Of a DNA stretch of 64,000 bases, positions 10,638 to 64,000 are shown piece by piece. Source of the stretch: a virus; the IMG/VR virus record IMGVR_UViG_3300048672_001165, positions 1-64,000 of that record. The stretch is one strand, 5' to 3'. Positions within the stretch are counted from its first letter, which is position 1. The number at the start of each line of letters is the position of its first letter. Made by a program: the position numbers and the translations under genes. The notes beneath the pieces are model-generated. The model was not told the origin of the DNA. It worked only from the letters and a program-made list of their open reading frames with translations, and searched no databases.

Positions 10638-10643
10638 CATGAT

Positions 10644-10678
10644 TGCAAAATATCGTAAACCTATATAACCAATGTGAG
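10644..10678 (+). promoter_or_regulatory. Early promoter, TGCA-N14-TATATAAC-N5-TGAG
   Basis: Matches the conserved spacing. The following 35-bp leader is identical to that at 19748. Confidence 0.7.
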
Positions 10679-10725
10679 GTAAGGAATGTCTCTTTACCCA
10701 AGATGCTTTTAATAGGAGATGCATC

Positions 10726-11385
10726 ATGAGTACTTTTGAACTGTTCGTTTTCGCTCTGGGTCAAATGGGCGCCGCCGGCGCCCTGGACGTGATGCAGCTG
10801 ATCAGCCGCATCGCACGGCTGATCGTCGTCCGCACGGACGGCAGTGTGTTCCTCCCGCAGCGGCGGGAGGAACACTGGCAGGGCATTCTCTCGGAAGGTG
10901 AAGCTTTCCGGGGCGCCCTCGGATGGGCTGCTGGTCTGCAGATTGACCCCCCGGAGTGGGTGACGGCTCTGTCTGAAGAACAGCGCCAGCTGGTGGTTAA
11001 CTTCTGCCACCAGCTCCTGGCGCTCAAGCGTCGAGACTGGGAGGCCGACACGATCGACGTCACCGCTGAGTACCTGATGCGGCCGATGGAGAGCCGCAAG
11101 GTGATGGTCTTTGGCCGAGGAGAGGCAAAGATGTCGCTGAAAGAAATGGTCCAGTTGGACCAAAAGTTCGAATGCCCGTACGTCACCAGCCAGGCCCTCA
11201 TCGGGCTGGCGGCGTACTTCGCCACCATGGGCGACCGCCCGGGCGCCTACATGGCGTCAAAGCTGGAAAAGGCTCAACTGAGCCCCGGCTTTGCCGACAA
11301 GGTCTCCGTCAAGGTCGCCGAGCTGAAGGCGGCCAAGCGGGCGGCCGCCAAGGCACGCGCCGCCGCCAAGAAGGCGGGCAAGTAA
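10726..11385 (+). CDS. Orphan paralogue family member 1 (219 aa, GC-rich)
   Basis: AGGAG RBS. Clear similarity to 11459..12076 (AF..ALGWA...PEWV..L..EQ). Confidence 0.8.
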   Translation: MSTFELFVFALGQMGAAGALDVMQLISRIARLIVVRTDGSVFLPQRREEHWQGILSEGEAFRGALGWAAGLQIDPPEWVTALSEEQRQLVVNFCHQLLALKRRDWEADTIDVTAEYLMRPMESRKVMVFGRGEAKMSLKEMVQLDQKFECPYVTSQALIGLAAYFATMGDRPGAYMASKLEKAQLSPGFADKVSVKVAELKAAKRAAAKARAAAKKAGK

Positions 11386-11391
11386 GCGTAG

Positions 11392-11437
11392 GCTAGACGG
11401 GGTGAATGTCACACCCCGTCTAGCTGACTTTTTCTTT
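11392..11437 (+). terminator. Intrinsic terminator
   Basis: 13-bp stem GCTAGACGGGGTG/CACCCCGTCTAGC plus T-tract. Confidence 0.75.
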
Positions 11438-11458
11438 GAACTCTTATAGGAGTGAAAA

Positions 11459-12076
11459 ATGAGTTTGTTTGAATCGTTCTTTTTCTGCTTGAACCAAATG
11501 CGCCACATGCTGGCGCAAATGGTGTACACCACCGGCAGCGGCAGTTTCGGGGTCAGCCCCCCGCTTGTTACTGTCTGGGTGGGCCTTCAACAAACCCACG
11601 GCTGGGCGTTCCACGACGCCCTCGGATGGGCGCTCTTGGGCGACGTCGCCCCGGAGTGGGTGGCCGTCCTGACGGCCGAACAGCAAGCGGCCGTCCAGGC
11701 TGCCTGCCGCCAGCTGGCGGCAGAGCAGAGGAAAGAGTGGCTGGCGCAGGCAGCCGGCTACGCTGCCAACCACCTGGCAAGCCAAAAGACCATCTTGGTG
11801 GCCCAGACCGGACTGCCGGCCAGAAAGATCCGCGCTACCGAGGCGGTTCAACTGGGTGGTCACTTTGTGGTCCACCCCTCGGACGTCCGAAAATTTGCAG
11901 CGGTGGGGCTGTACCTCCACCACAAGGCCCTGTCAAAGGGTCTGCCCAGCCCGGTCTCGGCTGACGCTGCGGGGATGATCCCGCACATCGACGAGGTCGA
12001 CGAGGAGTTCCTGATCCAGGCTGACGCCTGGATCGAGGAGCTGAAGAAGCGAAAGCGCTTGAAGAAGCGCAAGTAA
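11459..12076 (+). CDS. Orphan paralogue family member 2 (205 aa, GC-rich)
   Basis: AGGAG RBS. Paralogue of 10726..11385 with a basic C-terminal tail. Confidence 0.8.
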   Translation: MSLFESFFFCLNQMRHMLAQMVYTTGSGSFGVSPPLVTVWVGLQQTHGWAFHDALGWALLGDVAPEWVAVLTAEQQAAVQAACRQLAAEQRKEWLAQAAGYAANHLASQKTILVAQTGLPARKIRATEAVQLGGHFVVHPSDVRKFAAVGLYLHHKALSKGLPSPVSADAAGMIPHIDEVDEEFLIQADAWIEELKKRKRLKKRK

Positions 12077-16861: not shown

Positions 16862-19087
16862 ATGTCTACCAAACTCCAACTGGCATCCCTGATGAGCGGC
16901 TCGGCCGGCGTCAGCGCTGCTGCCTCGATTCCGACCAACTCGGTCAAGCTCACCGACGTCATCACCGGCCTGATGCAAGGCCAAGGCAGCTCCTACGTGG
17001 ACCAGGGCGTCGCCGGCAAGTACCTGTCGGCCGAGTCCTACGACGGTGCTGTGCGCGAGAAGCTCACCGGTGCTGTGCAGAACCTGCAAGCCCTGCTGGG
17101 CCAAGCCTTCAACCAGGCTGACATCACCCCGGCGGCTCGCCCGGGCTTCGCTCAAGAAGCTGCTGCGGTCTTCGGCGGCATGGCCGCTCGCAACATCAAG
17201 CAGGCCATGGCCACCGCGCCGCGCAGCCGCGAGCAGATCGCTGCTGCCTTCGCCGGCAACGAGTTCGTCACCGTGGTCGGCAACGACGCTGGTGTGATGG
17301 CTCTGGAGTCGCACCCGGCCCTCGAAGCCTACAACGAGACGCAGAACTCCAACGCGGTCGCCAACACGATCAGCTACAACCTGCAAGCCGCGCGCCAAGA
17401 CAGCTTCGGTGAGACCTTCTTCCCGACGACCGTCCTGACCCACGACAACATCGGCGCCCAAGTCGAGATGACCGTTCACCTGGTCTACGACGAAGTCAAG
17501 CGCTCGATGGCTGGTGCCGTCTCCAACTTCGGCCGCATCAACATCATCAAGGCCTTCGTCGATCCGACGATCATCCGCAACGACCAGACCCGCCTCTATC
17601 CGGTGGTCCGCTCGGGCGGCGCCGACGTCGACACGACCGCCAACTTCGTGGCCTCGACCGATGTCGCTCCGATCTCGATCGTCCAGGACAAGCTGCCGGT
17701 CACGACCGCTCCGCTCAAGATCGGTCAGACCTTCGACCTGATGGCCGTCTCGCAACGCGCCGCGCTGGTGGCTGCTGGTGTGCTCGACCAGACCGACGAC
17801 ATCGATCCGTCCATCACCCTGGACGCGATCTACATCAAGCTGGGTGCCAACGGCGGCAACAAGGTCCTGAAGTTCCCGGTGGCCGACATGGCCGGTGCGG
17901 ACTTCAACCAAGCTGTTCAGGGCAACACCCGCACGATGTCGCTGAACTTCAACAACCGCGACCTGATGGTTCTGCCCACGACGACCGACGTCACCGGCGC
18001 TCCTGTGGCGCAGCTGGCTGCTGTGGCCGGCTACACTGCTCGCCTCAAGGTCAGCCTGTTCGGCCAGGTCACCCTGGACACGGGTGAAACCACCGTCAAC
18101 GCCGCTGCGACTTCGGTCTCGCGCGTCATCGACGTCAACGGCAACGTGCTGGATCTGGGCGCCGGCGTCGGCGCGCAAGTCGCTGCGCTGTTCACGGGTG
18201 CAACCGTGGTCGGCTACGACCTGCGTGCCTGGCTGACCAACGCCAACCGTCGTCAGCGCGGCCAGCTGATCGACACCCAGACCTACCGCACGATGTACAC
18301 CGTGCCGCGCCTGCCGCCGGTCACGGCGCTGCGTCCGCTGGGTGCTTCGGAAGCCAACGACGGCAAGCTGGTGGAAACGCTGGTGCTGACCACCCGCATC
18401 CGCACCTCGAACGCGGCCGTGGCGGCCCTGCAGAACGCCGAGCGCGTCCTGTCGAACTGGGTCGGTCAAGCTGATCCGACGGTCCAGGTCCCGGAAATCC
18501 TGGGTCCGGCAGCTCGCCTGGTCAACCCGGTCTTCATGTCCGATTCGATCAACGTGACGGAAGTCGCCGCGCTGACCGACGAGGAGAAGATCGCCAACAT
18601 CCGCGCCAAGCTCGTCAACAAGCTGCGCGACATGGCCACCCGCATGTGGACGACGTCGGCCTACGGTCCGGCGGACGAAGCCATCACGGGCGCGGCCGGC
18701 AAGCCGCTGGTGCTGATCGGCGTCGATACCGACGTCTATCGCTACCTGTCGATCGACGGCGACACCCGTCTGCTGGGCGACCAGTTCGACGTGCGTCTGG
18801 TGACGACCTACAACAAGGAAGTCTACGGCAAGATCTACATGACCTTCGGCAAGGCCGAAGCCATCGGCTCTGGCGTGCCGCACCCGCTGCACTTCGGCAC
18901 CATGTTCTGGTGTCCGGAAGTCACCGTCATGGCTCCGATCCAACGCAACGGTCAGACCTCGTTCGAACTGACCACGGCTCCGCGTTTCCGTCACGTCGTC
19001 ATGCTGCCGATTCTGGCCAAGATCAACGTGACCGGCATCAAGGAAACCATCGATACGAAGATCCCGGTCTTCTTCCACACGGTCTAA
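16862..19087 (+). CDS. Major capsid protein precursor (phiKZ gp120-like)
   Basis: 741 aa. YNLQAARQDSFGETFFPT, NANRRQRGQL and HPLHFG motifs; S/A-x-E prohead protease sites (SAE, ALE, ALE) in the N-terminal ~155 aa; extreme codon bias; GAGGA RBS. Confidence 0.92.
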   Translation: MSTKLQLASLMSGSAGVSAAASIPTNSVKLTDVITGLMQGQGSSYVDQGVAGKYLSAESYDGAVREKLTGAVQNLQALLGQAFNQADITPAARPGFAQEAAAVFGGMAARNIKQAMATAPRSREQIAAAFAGNEFVTVVGNDAGVMALESHPALEAYNETQNSNAVANTISYNLQAARQDSFGETFFPTTVLTHDNIGAQVEMTVHLVYDEVKRSMAGAVSNFGRINIIKAFVDPTIIRNDQTRLYPVVRSGGADVDTTANFVASTDVAPISIVQDKLPVTTAPLKIGQTFDLMAVSQRAALVAAGVLDQTDDIDPSITLDAIYIKLGANGGNKVLKFPVADMAGADFNQAVQGNTRTMSLNFNNRDLMVLPTTTDVTGAPVAQLAAVAGYTARLKVSLFGQVTLDTGETTVNAAATSVSRVIDVNGNVLDLGAGVGAQVAALFTGATVVGYDLRAWLTNANRRQRGQLIDTQTYRTMYTVPRLPPVTALRPLGASEANDGKLVETLVLTTRIRTSNAAVAALQNAERVLSNWVGQADPTVQVPEILGPAARLVNPVFMSDSINVTEVAALTDEEKIANIRAKLVNKLRDMATRMWTTSAYGPADEAITGAAGKPLVLIGVDTDVYRYLSIDGDTRLLGDQFDVRLVTTYNKEVYGKIYMTFGKAEAIGSGVPHPLHFGTMFWCPEVTVMAPIQRNGQTSFELTTAPRFRHVVMLPILAKINVTGIKETIDTKIPVFFHTV

Positions 19088-19099
19088 TACGGCCGGCGG

Positions 19100-19178
19100 C
19101 CTTTGGTGGAGTAGGTTAAACTTGCTCCATTAAAGGACAGCATAATTGGCAGGCCTAGACGCCTGCCTTTTATGCCGC
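19100..19178 (+). terminator. MCP terminator region with REP-like GGCAGGC/GCCTGCC element
   Basis: Stem at 19100-19136, then GCATAA-GGCAGGC-CTAGAC-GCCTGCC-TTTTATGCCGC. Confidence 0.7.
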
Positions 19179-19478: not shown

Positions 19479-19658
19479 GTGAAAATGCGAGTTAGACGTA
19501 AGTCTGTTAGTAGCCAAAAAACGTTTCCAAAATACAAGCTAGTACTTTCATCAACCAACATCCGTGTAAATCCCGGCGACACCATTGAGTTTAATGGTAA
19601 AGGGGTTTACAAGATCACTAGTGGGGTTAGAAATAACCTTACATTAGTAGTCCGATAA
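19479..19658 (+). CDS. Small basic protein (59 aa, absent from the ORF track)
   Basis: AAGGGG RBS, GTG start, sequence MKMRVRRKSV...LTLVVR, followed by a terminator. Confidence 0.55.
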   Translation: MKMRVRRKSVSSQKTFPKYKLVLSSTNIRVNPGDTIEFNGKGVYKITSGVRNNLTLVVR

Positions 19659-19716
19659 AATATCTCCTACAGTAGCCCTCAAAAGCTACTGTAGGAATTA
19701 TGCCGTCTTACAGGAC

Positions 19717-19751
19717 TGCATTTTTTCTTAATCACATATCACTACTCTGAG
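19717..19751 (+). promoter_or_regulatory. Early promoter, TGCA-N14-CATATCAC-N5-TGAG
   Basis: Conserved spacing; nearly identical to the promoter at 62108. Confidence 0.7.
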
Positions 19752-19798
19752 GTAAGGAATGTCTCTTTACCCAAGATGCTTTACTTTAGGAGATAAGC

Positions 19799-20140
19799 AT
19801 GACTGTTGTTGCTGTTCTGAATACCAACGGTACCGCCGAGTCGGTATTGAACGATGTCGCCCAAATGGGCGGCACGTTTATTAAGATCTGCCATGTGGCA
19901 CGTGGCGTAGTGGCCGTCCACGTGGACGGCCACCAGCGTCGGCTCAAAACCTTTCATCACGCGGGGTACCCGACTCGCGTAAAAGTCGGTGCAACATTGT
20001 ACGCTTCAATCGAAGCGTATTTTGAGAAGTACCCCGATGATGAATTGAGTTGGGTGGGAGGGCCTTCAGCTCTTCAAAGCGACCGCTTGCCAGCCTGGGT
20101 CAACCGAGTAGGGCGGCCGGTGAAGATCGTGAAGGGTTGA
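19799..20140 (+). CDS. Hypothetical early protein (113 aa)
   Basis: AGGAG RBS after an early promoter. Confidence 0.7.
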   Translation: MTVVAVLNTNGTAESVLNDVAQMGGTFIKICHVARGVVAVHVDGHQRRLKTFHHAGYPTRVKVGATLYASIEAYFEKYPDDELSWVGGPSALQSDRLPAWVNRVGRPVKIVKG

Positions 20141-20207
20141 CCCCTAAGGTATAACTAAGGGTCTGCTTCTACTATCATAGCAGACCCTTCAGGAAAGGAA
20201 TTAAGAT

Positions 20208-20453
20208 ATGAGCAGCGCTTGTGCAGCGCTGGTCGTGGCCGCACGTATGCGGCACACGGCCGCCCTACTCGGAGTTCAGCTGTGCCTTCGGGTCATGGCT
20301 GAATCCAAAATTGGCCCGAGCCACCGCGCTCAGGCCCTTGCAGAAATCCTGGTGGCGGAGTCCCGCCACCAGTGCAAGAATTGGCCGCTTATCGAGCGTC
20401 TCCTTGGAGACCTTGAGGCGGAGCTGGATATCGAGACAGGCTACAACCTGTAA
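20208..20453 (+). CDS. Hypothetical protein (81 aa)
   Basis: AAGGA RBS; followed by terminator GGGGAGGC-TTTTAT-GCCTCCCC. Confidence 0.6.
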   Translation: MSSACAALVVAARMRHTAALLGVQLCLRVMAESKIGPSHRAQALAEILVAESRHQCKNWPLIERLLGDLEAELDIETGYNL

Positions 20454-20507
20454 TCGATATCCAGTAGGGGAGGCTTTTATGCCTCCCCCCCTTTTATTTT
20501 TCTTTAT

Positions 20508-20542
20508 TCGAGCTTTTTAAAAGACCATATTACCTCTTTGTG
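20508..20542 (+). promoter_or_regulatory. Early promoter (CATATTAC-N5-TG) for the nvRNAP operon
   Basis: CATATTAC at 20526-20533, followed by a leader hairpin. Confidence 0.6.
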
Positions 20543-20627
20543 ACAGTGCGGTTTCAAAAGAAACCGCTAGCTGTCTAAACTTTCCTTCTCTACAATCCAA
20601 TAAATCCAAAGAGGACGCTTTGTTCAA

Positions 20628-56855: not shown

Positions 56856-56896
56856 GCGGCATAAAAGGCAGGCCTAGACGCCTGCTCATTATGCCG
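56856..56896. repeat. REP-like element GCGGCATAAAA-GGCAGGC-CTAGAC-GCCTGC-TTATGCCG
   Basis: Near-identical copies at 19140 and 62067. Confidence 0.75.
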
Positions 56897-59423: not shown

Positions 59424-60026
59424 ATGCGTTTTCTCAAAGTCCTCATGGCAGCCATGCTGCTGATCGTCGGTGTCGTCTTCGGCGCACATGCCCAAGCAGC
59501 ACCCTTCGGCCTGATGGCCAACCCGACCTTCCTGCCCAACAACCCGCTGGTCACCGTCAAGGCCGGCTACCTGCAGCCGATCCCGAGCTGGCAAGGCAGC
59601 GGCAAGGCCAACGTCGGCCTCTACCCGGTGATCGACGGCCTCTACATCGGCCAAGCGGCCGGCACCATCTCCGGCTCGGCCAGCATGCTGCCCTATGCTG
59701 CCAACCCGAGTGTGACCCAAGTCGTGGCCGTGCCGACCAGCTGCCCTCAGCAACGTGTCGATGTGACCTTCGCCTTCATCGGCGGCCCGGTCTGGAGCCT
59801 GGCGCAAGACGCTTTCAAGATCACGGTGAGCAACAGCGTGCAGCGTTACAGCTGGATCACGGCGCCGGCCAAGACGGCAGGCCCTGACCAAGTCTACAAC
59901 TACCTGCTCAACCTGCCGGTGGGCAAGACCTACATGGTCAGCCTGGGCAGCGCCATGAGCTACAAGGCCAACACGCCTGCTCCGGCTGGTATCCAGGTGA
60001 AGTACTTCCAGATCACATGCATCTGA
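59424..60026 (+). CDS. Secreted/periplasmic beta-rich protein (200 aa)
   Basis: Sec signal peptide ending AHAQA, two Cys, capsid-like codon bias, flanked by terminators. Confidence 0.75.
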   Translation: MRFLKVLMAAMLLIVGVVFGAHAQAAPFGLMANPTFLPNNPLVTVKAGYLQPIPSWQGSGKANVGLYPVIDGLYIGQAAGTISGSASMLPYAANPSVTQVVAVPTSCPQQRVDVTFAFIGGPVWSLAQDAFKITVSNSVQRYSWITAPAKTAGPDQVYNYLLNLPVGKTYMVSLGSAMSYKANTPAPAGIQVKYFQITCI

Positions 60027-60646: not shown

Positions 60647-61330
60647 ATGGCCAAACTAGGCAACCGAAAAGCAGCTGAAGCTATCATCATGAAGTGGATT
60701 CCTCAGATCATCCCGAATGGGGTGAACGAGACAATCTACAAAGAAAAGCTAGCTGCTTTAACCGATGAAGAGTTTCACAACCTCATGCTCACACTCAAAG
60801 CAGGAGGCACTCTTCCCATCTATACACCTAACTACAACGATACTCGAATCAATACCAAGCACCTGTTCAGGTTAGCCAAGACCATGGGTGTGCAGCTCTT
60901 TCACCGCATCCAAGTGCCTGAGTCTGAAACGAATCGCCCTTACCTGACACCTCGTAAATACTTGGTGGTGAGGCTGCCTTACCGACGAGCGGCTCAGCTG
61001 CTTGTCAAAAAGATCAGCATCCCTGCAGACAACAACTCTGTTGACTTCTATACAGGTCAAGTCACCGGCTCCAGTAAAGGCGCTTCCATTTCTCTGCCTG
61101 AGCTGCGCATGCTCTCAGCCATGAATCTGTCCCACTCTGTTGTGGAACTAGAGAAATACAGAGGCGGTGATGAGGGTGGTTTCAGAGCGATGAACTACAC
61201 GCTCCACCAGCAGGGTCGAGTCTCCATGAAAGAAATCAGTCAATTTGCCTCTGGTGTGCGTTCCACCTGGACACTGAAGCAATTCCTCAACGCGGCCCAC
61301 CTGAAGAACACCTTAACCGATAAAGCATGA
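60647..61330 (+). CDS. Virion RNA polymerase beta subunit, C-terminal part (phiKZ gp149-like)
   Basis: LP.RR..Q.L.KKISIP..N..VD..TGQVTG.SKGASIS.PE and E..KYRGGD; corresponds to the beta C-terminal GGQRFGEME region; synteny near uvsX. Confidence 0.8.
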   Translation: MAKLGNRKAAEAIIMKWIPQIIPNGVNETIYKEKLAALTDEEFHNLMLTLKAGGTLPIYTPNYNDTRINTKHLFRLAKTMGVQLFHRIQVPESETNRPYLTPRKYLVVRLPYRRAAQLLVKKISIPADNNSVDFYTGQVTGSSKGASISLPELRMLSAMNLSHSVVELEKYRGGDEGGFRAMNYTLHQQGRVSMKEISQFASGVRSTWTLKQFLNAAHLKNTLTDKA

Positions 61331-62058
61331 ACAACCCCTCTCAACTCTACATTGATATCCAAGCCCTACTCGATACCCGTCTGGGGTGTCTCATGGGGCT
61401 ACACGAAGAGTTTGCTCTTTTCGTCACCAAACGAAAAGACTACTACACCAGAGAAATCGACTGCTTTACTCACCCTGAGATGGGCGAGCTAAGTCGAGAA
61501 CTCTTTGAAGAAACTCTTTCTAAACAAGGCCCTTCTGTTCTTGACCACAGTCCTATGACCTGTATGGTCGAATGGGTGAGGAAATGGCTAGAATACTTTG
61601 TCGTACAAGAAGTTAACTCCCCTATTAAAGGTGGGGTCAATATCACGATCAATACCTTTCCTTTTGAGCTAGACTCAGAAGAACGAATTGAACTAATAGA
61701 AACTTTAAAAGTTTATTGGGGCCCTATTTTCCCCATGTCGGTTATTTGTGTTGACCCACAGAAAATAAGCTTGATTAATGACAGCCACAGTACCTACATC
61801 TTTTACTATGCTCTGGACTGGCTCAAAGCTAACGAACAAGTCATCAACGGCGCTAGTGCGTTTAATAAAACGGTGTATCTACCTAAGATCAACTTAGTCA
61901 GAGCACTGACTAAAGAAGAACGTACACAACTCCAACAAGAAGGTATTGATCCTTTTGATTTGATCAGTGAAGCGTTTAAGATGAAGTTGAAAGTAGAGTT
62001 CTTACCGATACAGCTCTACTGCATCGACGCTCCTGAAAACCCTTCTTGTACGAAGTGA
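61327..62058 (+). CDS. Conserved hypothetical protein (243 aa)
   Basis: Overlaps the RNAP stop (ATGA); LYIDIQALLDTRLG and INTFPF.L motifs. Confidence 0.7.
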   Translation: MNNPSQLYIDIQALLDTRLGCLMGLHEEFALFVTKRKDYYTREIDCFTHPEMGELSRELFEETLSKQGPSVLDHSPMTCMVEWVRKWLEYFVVQEVNSPIKGGVNITINTFPFELDSEERIELIETLKVYWGPIFPMSVICVDPQKISLINDSHSTYIFYYALDWLKANEQVINGASAFNKTVYLPKINLVRALTKEERTQLQQEGIDPFDLISEAFKMKLKVEFLPIQLYCIDAPENPSCTK

Positions 62059-62107
62059 AGTGAGCAGCATAAAAGGCAGGCCTAAGAGCCTGCCCCATAT
62101 GCCGCAC

Positions 62108-62142
62108 TGCAATTTTTTCTAATCACATATCACTAAGATGAA
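62108..62142 (+). promoter_or_regulatory. Early promoter, TGCA-N14-CATATCAC-N5-TGAA
   Basis: Conserved spacing; near-copy of the 19717 promoter. Confidence 0.7.
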
Positions 62143-62178
62143 GTAGGGAATGTATCTCTACAACTTAGGAGTATTACC

Positions 62179-62448
62179 ATGTCTGTCCGTCAAACCCTGA
62201 GCGTCTCGACTTCGGTCGAGACGTTTTTGTTTAACTTCAGCTCGACTTCGGTCGAGCTGGTTCTGAACCAGCGCGTGGCTGGCCGCGTTCGCGCGGCCAC
62301 AGTCCGCGCTTTGTTCGCGGCCGCAGTGGCCGCCTTCTCGGCCGGCGCTGGCGCCGCCGAGGTGGATGACTATTGCGACAACGCGGTCGTCGCCGGGCTG
62401 AACTGGCAAGCGGCGATCGATGACATATTCACTGCAGCGATGCAGTGA
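62179..62448 (+). CDS. 89-aa ORF overlapping a chain of RNA hairpins (possible dual-function or non-coding RNA)
   Basis: AGGAG RBS and ATG, but the sequence consists of consecutive stem-loops including three UUCG loops. Confidence 0.5.
   Translation: MSVRQTLSVSTSVETFLFNFSSTSVELVLNQRVAGRVRAATVRALFAAAVAAFSAGAGAAEVDDYCDNAVVAGLNWQAAIDDIFTAAMQ
62202..62259 (+). repeat. Tandem C(UUCG)G hairpins, CTCGACTTCGGTCGAG x2, 36-nt period
   Basis: 9-bp stems at 62202-62223 and 62238-62259; the first is followed by TTTTTGTTT. Confidence 0.85.
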
Positions 62449-62463
62449 AGTTTCCCAGTAGTG

Positions 62464-62494
62464 AGAAAGAGGGTCAGTAGGCTCTCTTTCTTTT
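62464..62494 (+). terminator. Intrinsic terminator
   Basis: AGAAAGAGGG/CTCTCTTTCT stem plus T-tract. Confidence 0.65.
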
Positions 62495-62543
62495 GCCTGT
62501 GCTTACCAGGCTTTGTAGTAAGCAAATCAATTAGGAGTGAATT

Positions 62544-62891
62544 ATGTCTTTCTACGCTGATGTTCTTGCCGGGCGAGTTCAAATGCCCCACCCGCAGTCA
62601 TGGGACAGCGTGTTTGGGGGCTTTGACCAGATTGAGGGGGCGACTCAGGCCGCCTCGCTGGCGAAGATCCCCAGCTGCCGCTGGGGTATTCTGGCGTTCG
62701 ACGACCAGAATACCAACCCGGTCGCCATCCCCATTTTCCCCCGGCTTGGGGGAAATGGCCTGGAAGAGGCGGTTCAGGCCGCCGCTGCGGTGGCCGGCAT
62801 CTTGTACTCGACCACCCACGTGGTCGACGTGCGGCTGCGCGTGGCGGCTGTCCTGCCTGGCCTGCAAAGTCACGCCAGCTTCACCTTCTGA
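62544..62891 (+). CDS. Hypothetical protein (115 aa, GC-rich)
   Basis: AGGAG RBS. Confidence 0.65.
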   Translation: MSFYADVLAGRVQMPHPQSWDSVFGGFDQIEGATQAASLAKIPSCRWGILAFDDQNTNPVAIPIFPRLGGNGLEEAVQAAAAVAGILYSTTHVVDVRLRVAAVLPGLQSHASFTF

Positions 62892-62903
62892 AGGGGGGTT
62901 ATC

Positions 62904-63587
62904 ATGACCCCCTTCAACGAGCCGCGCGTTTACGCGGCGGGGTTGTCTACGGACGACCCCACGCAGGCCTTCGCTTATGGCGAAGGCCTCTTCGTCCGGC
63001 AGCGCAACAAGGTGGCGTTCACTACGTCCGGCAATTTCATTGCCGAGCTGGCGCAGGGGCTCTGGTACCAGATCAATGGTACCCGGGTGAAAAAGCCCGC
63101 CACGGCGGTGATTAAGCCGGACATCGCAGTCCGGGCGTTTTCGCATGACCGCTACATGGCGGTGATGTCAGAAATCGCCACGGACTGCGAAGCGGTCCAG
63201 GGGTTGCTGGAAGGACAGCCCCTGGTCCAGAACTTAGACCTAGTGCCGCGAATGGCACCGCATACGCCAGCTGCCCCGGGAGAAATCCCGGAATTTAAGC
63301 TGGTGGCATCGCCGAACAGCGGCAGCTCCTTCACGTCGGATGTAAAGTTCGACGTGAAGTTTGGCAATCTGTCTTTCCGAGACGAGACGGGCAACCGCAT
63401 CGTCGTGAACGACCTGCTTCCGTATGCGCAGGAGGCATTTCGATTTGACGTGACTATCATGAAGTTTCAGCAGCTGGCCGCCCTGGTGCGGCTGGCGCTG
63501 ACCTTTAATGAAAGTCAGACGTCTTGGAAAATCCAATGGGTCTTCGTGCCGCAAACCGGGCTGTATTACAGCCTTGAGGCGGCATAA
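62904..63587 (+). CDS. Hypothetical protein (227 aa, GC-rich)
   Basis: G-rich RBS; stop codon lies within GCGGCATAA. Confidence 0.7.
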   Translation: MTPFNEPRVYAAGLSTDDPTQAFAYGEGLFVRQRNKVAFTTSGNFIAELAQGLWYQINGTRVKKPATAVIKPDIAVRAFSHDRYMAVMSEIATDCEAVQGLLEGQPLVQNLDLVPRMAPHTPAAPGEIPEFKLVASPNSGSSFTSDVKFDVKFGNLSFRDETGNRIVVNDLLPYAQEAFRFDVTIMKFQQLAALVRLALTFNESQTSWKIQWVFVPQTGLYYSLEAA

Positions 63588-63641
63588 AGCCCAGAGGCGT
63601 ACAAAGGATTAAACCCCCTTTGTACGCCTCTTTATTTTTTC

Positions 63642-64000
63642 TCACTTTTTCTTCTGAGAGGCCATGAATGAATCATAGTTCATGGCAGGCACACCAATGG
63701 TCATTTCATCAGGTGCCATAGAGACTTCTACAGTACTCTCATCGAGTTGAGGGGCGCTGCGGGCTGCTCCGTTTTCTACGCGGCCAATCGCTTTCAAACC
63801 ACCTTGATCTAGCAAAGCAGCAATCAAACCAGCAGCTTGTGCATTGGCGTTAGCTGCTGTATCATCCACCTTCAGCTTAGCCAGTTGAATAGCAGCATGG
63901 TCCATATCGCGCAGCAAACTACCCAGCGCTCCTATTTTCTCACTGTGCATCTTGCCCAGGTCTTCACCTGCAGCAGCCACAATAGAGTTTACCAGCGCTT
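63642..64000 (-). CDS. Hypothetical protein, 5' end outside the window
   Basis: Frame stays open to the window edge; ends at a convergent terminator (63593-63640). Confidence 0.65.
   Translation of the reverse strand, partial: ALVNSIVAAAGEDLGKMHSEKIGALGSLLRDMDHAAIQLAKLKVDDTAANANAQAAGLIAALLDQGGLKAIGRVENGAARSAPQLDESTVEVSMAPDEMTIGVPAMNYDSFMASQKKK

Follow-up and report, generated by a model that had tools for sequence, protein, structure and literature searches.

The window studied here comprises bases 1-64000 of a 93,684-bp IMG/VR virus record (IMGVR_UViG_3300048672_001165; CheckV completeness ~35%), and the element in question lies close to its end, at 62106-62494 on the plus strand. We read this element, with a probability of about 0.6, as an early-type accessory transcription unit made of a promoter-like motif, a leader hairpin, a Shine-Dalgarno sequence, a gene for 89 amino acids (named ORF89 after its open reading frame, ORF) and a terminator, in which a chain of palindromes would have arisen mainly by template switching. 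The structure is real and unusual, and the unit that carries it is of an ordinary kind: a small conserved gene with palindromes of template-switch shape, like seven other genes that follow the same type of promoter-leader cassette.

Between 62139 and 62494, hairpins follow one another along the plus strand. The leader hairpin (62143-62161) has 7 bp, with GGAAUGU spanning the top of its 5′ arm and the loop. Hairpin 1, CGTCTCGAC-TTCG-GTCGAGACG (62202-62223), begins 23 nt into ORF89 and counts 9 perfect base pairs, or 11-12 with wobble pairs; the U-tract behind it, TTTTTGTTT (62224-62232), forms a terminator-like tail. Its twin, hairpin 2, is CAGCTCGAC-TTCG-GTCGAGCTG (62238-62259). The two share a 16-nt core, CTCGACTTCGGTCGAG, found in exactly two copies in the contig, 36 nt (12 codons) apart. 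An alternative 7-bp stem, GCTGGTT/AACCAGC (62256-62272), overlaps the 3′ arm of hairpin 2. Hairpin 3, (T)GGCCGCG-TTCG-CGCGGCC(A) (62280-62299, 8 bp), codes for the invariant peptide A-G-R-V-R-A, and further GC stems at 62317-62333, 62337-62361 and 62375-62393 lie within the Ala-rich helical part of the protein. A 9-bp hairpin with a GCGA (GNRA) loop extends across the TGA stop codon (62428-62449). The unit closes with an intrinsic terminator (62463-62494), a 13-bp stem with three G-U pairs and then a T-run; these three pairs make it specific to the sense strand, the antisense fold being weaker.

A first-pass annotation of this DNA had described most of this chain, omitting the hairpin across the stop codon and giving the terminator no coordinates of its own, as a candidate regulatory or decoy RNA hidden in an ORF. 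Its anatomy stands: every stem that it named is found, the twins share their core at a 36-nt period, an RBS (ribosome-binding site) and an 89-codon frame run through the hairpins, and the unit is flanked by a repeated promoter-like motif on one side and the terminator on the other. Its description of the tetraloops as C(UUCG)G is right for the twins only, since hairpin 3 is closed by a G-C pair and reads G(UUCG)C.

The unit has a minimum free energy (MFE) of -175.5 kcal/mol, against -132.2 ± 5.5 kcal/mol for dinucleotide shuffles (z -7.86, 0/100). Perfect hairpins with a stem of at least 7 bp and a 4-nt loop number 35 in the whole contig, four of them in one 250-nt stretch of this unit. A TTCG loop occurs in just three of the 35, all located at 62202-62299. 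ORF89 contains 5 perfect hairpins, while synonymous permutations that preserve the protein give an expectation of 0.79 (0/200). The antisense strand is equally over-folded (z -8.52), and in 11 segments of related genes the folding excess is likewise equal on both strands. Hairpins of the coding sequence are purely Watson-Crick, unlike the terminator with its G-U pairs. That the MFE also exceeds that of synonymous permutations (z -4.1) was dropped as a sign of special structure, as ordinary genes reach -4.4 with a mean of -2.4; the measure that discriminates is the count of perfect hairpins.

ORF89 (62179..62448, plus strand) is preceded by the Shine-Dalgarno motif AGGAG (62167-62171), 7 nt before the ATG. 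The GC content at its codon positions 1, 2 and 3 (GC1/2/3) is.62/.49/.76, in frame 0 only, next to.66/.47/.76 and.60/.42/.75 in the adjacent genes. It belongs to an ORFan family with three known members among 5.8 + 1.8 billion proteins: the window protein (P0001); P0002, of 92 amino acids and 83% identity, encoded on a 29.9-kb contig; and P0003, of 46% identity (E 1e-11), encoded on a different contig of 105.8 kb. Indels between homologues are in frame, P0002 having insertions of 3 and 6 nt. A P0002-type allele was rebuilt from Logan contigs aligned over 61900-62700 and matches P0002 for 72 residues bar one V/A swap; DNA counts against this relative (run X2) are counts of listed differences, so that small numbers may be missed. 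With respect to this allele, ORF89 shows 17 synonymous and 10 non-synonymous changes among the differences listed, and a ratio of non-synonymous to synonymous rates (dN/dS) of 0.175 (Nei-Gojobori); codons 30-57 hold 12-13 synonymous changes and 0 non-synonymous ones. An AlphaFold2 model from the three-sequence alignment has a mean local confidence (pLDDT) of 79 and a predicted template-modelling score (pTM) of 0.69. It predicts a beta3-alpha3 fold, with strands at residues 5-11, 13-20 and 25-29 and helices at 39-54, 59-68 and 76-88.

Because of its RBS, its codon-position GC, its homologues with in-frame indels, its dN/dS and its confident fold model, we regard ORF89 as a genuine, codon-optimised small protein gene under purifying selection. 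The earlier picture of an RNA hidden in a reading frame gives way to that of a conserved gene with two homologues. Pfam, PHROGs, NCBIfam and PADLOC contain no family for it. Foldseek searches with the model gave no match at E ≤0.001 in PDB and BFVD, and the best VIA-wide Z was 4.8; a PDB profile search returned E ≥0.7, and the ESM Atlas no usable match. A minus-strand ORF of 83 amino acids over the same DNA (62158-62409) was rejected, its GC1/2/3 of.74/.50/.61 being unlike that of the genome's genes.

The promoter-like motif in front of the unit (62106..62135, plus strand) is composed of ACTGCA, a T-run and then AATCACATATCACTA, and constitutes the first part of a cassette present in four copies, all on the plus strand: 10640-10725, 19706-19798, 62097-62178 and, beyond the window, contig 93126-93223. 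Their leaders are found near 10680, 19753, 62144 and 93179; three of the cassettes have TTAGGAG ahead of the ATG, and the one that precedes gene 10726-11385 has ATAGGAG. At least three of the four are directly preceded by a hairpin. Across the cassettes, 27 of the 28 cells of the leader hairpin are paired, two pairs are changed on both sides and GGAAUGU is invariant, while slid controls reach at most 71%. This leader hairpin is the best-supported RNA structure of the locus, and the promoter-leader cassette is a candidate marker of an early-gene regulon for the phage clade. The phiKZ early promoter combines an extended -10 with a T-rich block further upstream, and 5′ untranslated regions (UTRs) measure 31-40 nt (PMC8244752). 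The cassette motif is similar in layout, its T-rich block lying ahead of a block that resembles an extended -10, and the phiKZ UTR length fits a putative transcription start near 62136; we infer that the promoter would be an early one.

Eight genes lie behind the four cassettes. ORF89 is followed by two genes of 115 and 227 amino acids (62544..63587, plus strand; ORF115 and ORF227), with a codon-position profile and a hairpin tiling like its own. A paralogous cassette with promoter, leader hairpin and RBS drives ORF113 and ORF81 (19706..20453, plus strand); another (10640..12076, plus strand), in which the leader hairpin is identical and the promoter core varies, lies in front of genes 10726-11385 and 11459-12076 and drives both. 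Both genes of either pair are palindrome-rich. The ORF of the fourth cassette (contig 93224-93684, plus strand, beyond the window) runs off the contig end and contains 7 perfect hairpins in 459 nt. Altogether, these eight genes have 4.4-18.5 perfect hairpins per kb and dinucleotide-shuffle z values of -3.5 to -8.1, ORF89 being the extreme of the class with 18.5 per kb (z -6.9). Nine native genes and three others rich in GC at the third codon position (GC3) have 0-2.7 per kb, near expectation, with z from +0.3 to -5.8. When the contig was scanned independently with a sliding window and a correction for GC, the highest-ranking stretches were 62191-63720, 19621-20610 and 93331-93600. The ORF at 93224 resembles the CRISPR-associated protein Csx20 (PADLOC PDLC01384, E 3.4e-6; NCBIfam CAS_Csx20, E 1.7e-4, under its cut-off) and is a possible anti-type III CRISPR gene; the other seven cassette genes match no known family of Pfam, PHROGs, NCBIfam or PADLOC. 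Two side observations concern the pair at 19706: inside ORF113 lie a 24-nt palindrome without mismatch (19910-19933) and a hairpin followed by TTTTGAG (20000-20026), and a perfect 16-nt inverted repeat joins the end of ORF113 (20104-20119) to the interior of ORF81 (20257-20272).

Comparison with the P0002-type allele reveals what becomes of the hairpins in a relative. In hairpin 1, all 18 stem bases are kept, and where the window has the loop TTCG, the relative has the exact reverse complement, CGAA. This inversion replaces Ser12 by Glu and is present in two runs from different studies as well as in P0002, which reads STEVE. The U-tract TTTTTGTTT is changed to TTTTCGTTC in this homologue. In hairpin 2, 6 nt are added at the loop, CUUC pairs with GAAG and the stem is lengthened; the difference table read literally gives SVEAE here and P0002 has SAEVE, but the former loop is paired either way, and the version consistent with P0002 is a perfect 28-nt palindrome. 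Hairpin 3 has a single change, C62298T, which retains a G-U pair, and the stems within 62317-62393 are partly re-registered. In the 83% homologue, then, hairpins 1-3 retain their stems but not the UUCG loops.

Template switching at inverted repeats is known to invert loops, homogenise arms and extend stems, coding genes included (PMC8604942, PMC8794818). We infer that the hairpin chain, a set of perfect Watson-Crick inverted repeats placed in frame in the coding sequence, would have arisen and stayed perfect mainly by such events during DNA replication. The twins are a 12-codon in-frame repeat, with arms that code for beta-strands and loops that code for protein turns: hairpin 1 with its U-tract codes for V-S-T-S-V-E-T, which makes up beta1, the turn and beta2, and the loop of hairpin 2 corresponds to the protein loop between beta2 and beta3. 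Placed on the ORF89 model, the two RNA loops coincide with turns of the protein (residue 12; residues 21-24), and for this reason multi-base changes of the loops would be tolerated. The outcome is a very highly structured messenger RNA (mRNA), a trait common to the whole set of eight small, codon-optimised genes that the four cassettes precede. Its likeliest effects would concern the messenger itself, namely resistance to RNases and, at hairpin 1 with its U-tract, a partial premature stop that would give a leader RNA of ~95 nt beside the full mRNA.

The likeness to described template-switch mutations (PMC8604942, PMC8794818) covers the inversion of a spacer between intact arms, the homogenisation of arms, the extension of stems and the multi-nucleotide, amino-acid-changing nature of the differences between relatives. 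Those precedents come from yeast genes, ribosomal RNA and other RNA genes, whereas here a phage accessory gene is concerned and the density is limited to one promoter class. The different but fully paired outer base pairs of the twins had been taken in the first-pass annotation as a mark of selection on structure. We do not hold this: template switching between tandem copies yields such pairs unselected, and as loop inversion and stem extension are known products of that process, the compensatory pairs alone are no proof of selection. Base pairs of the window are not significantly better retained in the relative than random synonymous change would leave them (broken pairs, p 0.17-0.41; energy, p 0.04-0.125). 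More generally, hairpins in coding DNA that look perfectly compensated can stem from template switching and not from selection on RNA.

Several points weigh against template switching as the main source of the palindromes. Just two events, from a single comparison, speak for it. By itself it leaves unexplained why palindromes pile up in cassette genes only, a pattern that hints at selection or shared origin. If the twins are counted as one event and hairpin 3 as another, chance is a somewhat unlikely source of two independent TTCG loops. In addition, the four substitutions of the relative in the hairpin at 62337-62361 all spare its base pairs and two changes within stems leave G-U pairs, which would mildly favour constraint at the RNA level.

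Divergence from the X2 relative is distributed as a mosaic. One difference is listed in 61900-62172, ~30 plus two indels in 62173-62351, none in 62461-62538 (the terminator and the next RBS) and 29 in 62539-62700; the stretch 62386-62460 is not alignable. The alleles of ORF89 and ORF115 are 17-30% divergent between phages that are ~99.6% identical in a core gene. Other contigs of the relatives match 62063-62105 or 62106-62172 alone; cassettes are therefore repeated in relatives too. The borders of divergence fall in the 7-nt spacers between RBS and ATG (62173-62177, 62539-62543). On a contig of run X2 that departs from the window behind 62172, another copy of leader and RBS leads into ATG TTT GAA CGT CAA ACT GTA AAC (MFERQTVN). 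This N-terminus echoes MSVRQTLS of ORF89 and may belong to a paralogue absent from the 93-kb fragment.

A comparable arrangement exists in T4-like phages. Their PeSL (promoter early stem-loop) cassettes, a terminator-type stem-loop with an early promoter, are repeated across the genome, flank small variable ORFans and are identical between close relatives while the enclosed genes differ (PMC2839356, PMC4122927). Here as well, four promoter-leader cassettes enclose ORFans, and cassette segments have 0-1 listed differences where the coding sequences are 17-30% divergent. The sequences and the phage families are unrelated, so the resemblance is one of working and not of membership; moreover, the present cassette adds a conserved, covarying 5′ leader hairpin, and PeSLs are intergenic, the hairpin tiling of enclosed coding sequences having no place in their description. 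In its ordinary reading, the locus offers a clean promoter-leader cassette for early-gene annotation in an unsampled freshwater clade, and regulatory cassettes that would act as conserved recombination borders around fast-diverging accessory genes, not previously described for this phage family.

Among the other explanations, the one that survives best makes hairpin 1 a selected premature terminator, which we consider possible but unlikely. Most transcripts would end near 62226-62232 as a regulatory RNA of ~95 nt, composed of the leader hairpin, the RBS, 16 codons and the terminator hairpin, and read-through, perhaps helped by an antiterminator or by the ribosome, would produce the ORF89 mRNA. 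A strict terminator scan of the whole contig yielded 13 sites, of which 9 are intergenic and only 2 are intragenic on the same strand. Hairpin 1 with its U-tract, GC-rich, with 9-11 bp, a UUCG loop and then UUUUUGUUU, is the stronger of these two and looks equal to the contig's true intergenic terminators. In the 83% homologue the stem and UUUU survive, with a weaker tail, UUUUCGUUC, no extended wobble pairs and a hairpin energy that goes from -18.3 to -14.9 kcal/mol. ORF113, behind a paralogous cassette, likewise holds an intragenic hairpin with TTTTGAG, but the other two cassettes are without a comparable site in the first 100 nt. Furthermore, the U-tract belongs to the conserved codons E-T-F-x-F, so that the need of the protein alone may explain it, and P0003 has at the position of hairpin 1 the peptide LDHETSTYAF, which cannot encode this hairpin with its U-tract.

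Precedents for such short RNAs made by premature termination are found in phiKZ, where >90% of T102 transcripts are aborted to yield a 71-nt RNA, and in 201phi2-1, where eight small RNAs arise through premature termination in 5′ UTRs (PMC10914365, PMC11512511). As in those phages, the terminator-like hairpin here lies less than ~100 nt from a phage promoter, and an abundant short RNA next to a read-through mRNA would be possible. Theirs, however, were mapped experimentally and sit in 5′ UTRs; the present putative site is inside a conserved coding sequence. Taken by itself, some degree of premature termination at 62224-62232 is plausible, at near even odds.

The tiling could instead be an adaptation of the messenger. 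In its broadest form, which we find doubtful, this proposal makes the tiling of the eight early-cassette genes a selected anti-defence trait of a jumbo-phage regulon, joined in ORF89 by the ~95-nt leader RNA, with helices renewed by template switching and loop flips that recode protein turns. The simpler form, in which class-wide tiling with perfect helices would protect highly expressed early anti-defence mRNAs against RNA-targeting immunity (type III CRISPR, Cas13) or against host or toxin RNases, we also judge improbable. It would account for the confinement of the tiling to eight cassette genes, when other genes equally rich in GC3 have none, and for the contribution of codon choice that is seen under synonymous permutation. 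The Csx20-like gene of the fourth cassette, akin to a type III CRISPR accessory protein, would fit it too, as would the divergence of the ORF89 and ORF115 alleles against near-identity elsewhere, as at arms-race loci. Against it, the folding excess has no strand asymmetry, the stems are not significantly conserved, a search for experimental precedents gave none, and relaxed constraint on young accessory genes together with template switching could yield an equal pattern. If the tiling were selected, it would represent a counter-defence or stability strategy at the level of the messenger, specific to early accessory genes of a nucleus-type jumbo phage, and hairpin 1 would be a natural case in which the inversion of one loop alters RNA structure and a protein turn together.

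It is very unlikely that the palindromes work as DNA, by binding a dimeric DNA-binding protein, a nuclease or a packaging or ejection factor, or by forming cruciforms, with the RNA fold as a by-product. The excess is strand-symmetric and purely Watson-Crick, as this would have it, and several palindromes (11704, 19910, 93595) have a palindromic centre and thus no loop at the DNA level. Yet the ~25 palindromes are without a common sequence motif, and their restriction to transcribed, highly expressed genes of one promoter type points to the transcript or to transcription-linked mutagenesis.

The decoy proposed in the first-pass annotation, in which the twin hairpins would imitate the repeats of host CRISPR arrays or of type III antitoxins and so sequester Cas or toxin proteins, is the least credible of all. 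What favours it is two hairpin copies spaced 36 nt, the length of a ToxI repeat, together with general background: phages do carry RNA anti-CRISPRs, which are solitary repeat units, and pseudo-ToxI, and jumbo phages meet mainly RNA-targeting immunity. Known phage RNA decoys are also short, repeated, hairpin-forming units, but the present element has no similarity to catalogued repeats: Rfam gave no CRISPR-DR, ToxI or other family match even at E up to 10, and the 16-mer core forms no array in 185,579 species genomes. The 36-nt units are merely 23/36 identical outside and around the core, their period is unlike the repeat-plus-spacer spacing of CRISPR, and the loops, usually the parts read by proteins, are not conserved in the 83% homologue. 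The element is set in frame inside a conserved protein gene and is not a free-standing non-coding repeat. Type III antitoxin RNAs consist of tandem, nearly identical repeats of about 34-45 nt beside an endoRNase toxin gene; the genes that neighbour the unit match no known family of Pfam, PHROGs, NCBIfam or PADLOC. Finally, seven other genes are tiled as well; the tiling is therefore a class property and does not mark a special decoy locus.

As regards the phage itself, the genes of the contig include those for a major head protein of the phiKZ type (phrog_3231, E 2e-166) and for a piece of a split RNA polymerase beta subunit at 60647-61330 (phrog_3233). The gene directly upstream of the unit (61327-62058) is phrog_3328, with only ~25% identity to proteins of phiKZ, Phabio and Erwinia jumbo phages. 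Judged by these three genes, this uncultured phage is distantly related to the phiKZ-like jumbo phages. The public sequencing runs in which it occurs come from freshwater, aquatic and wastewater metagenomes, with no RNA run among them. In records of cultured phages, neither DNA nor protein matches 62106-62494. No DNA of relatives was found in viral contigs searched with protein-derived patterns of the ORF89 family, with degenerate AGRVRA(A/S)TVR and with the leader hairpin, nor was there a match among the metagenome contigs scanned for it.

GC3 is about.5 in most genes and attains.84-.85 in 16862-19087, 59424-60026 and contig 65510-67240, that is, in the major head protein and two others. At.85 the major head protein has the highest GC3, which argues that a gene of high GC3 is highly expressed, and none of these.84-.85 genes is tiled with hairpins. 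We read the GC-rich patches as codon bias and not as foreign origin, with high GC3 as a mark of expression level in this genome. Their interpretation as horizontally acquired islands was dropped, given that the major head protein itself tops the scale.

Two further hairpins border the unit and its downstream genes. After gene 61327-62058, a terminator-type hairpin GGCAGGC...GCCTGCC (62067..62095) has its T-run on the minus strand (site 62074-62095, tail TTTATGCT), opposite to the strand of the flanking genes. It belongs to a family, GCATAAAAGGCAGGCC...GCCTGCC flanked by GCATA/TATGC, that occurs in both orientations at 19138-19176, 56859-56876, 62067-62095, contig 70713-70750 and 86692-86707. 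Directly after gene 62904-63587, an inverted repeat of 15 perfect base pairs, its arms 9 nt apart (63593-63631), is probably the terminator that closes the ORF115-ORF227 stretch.

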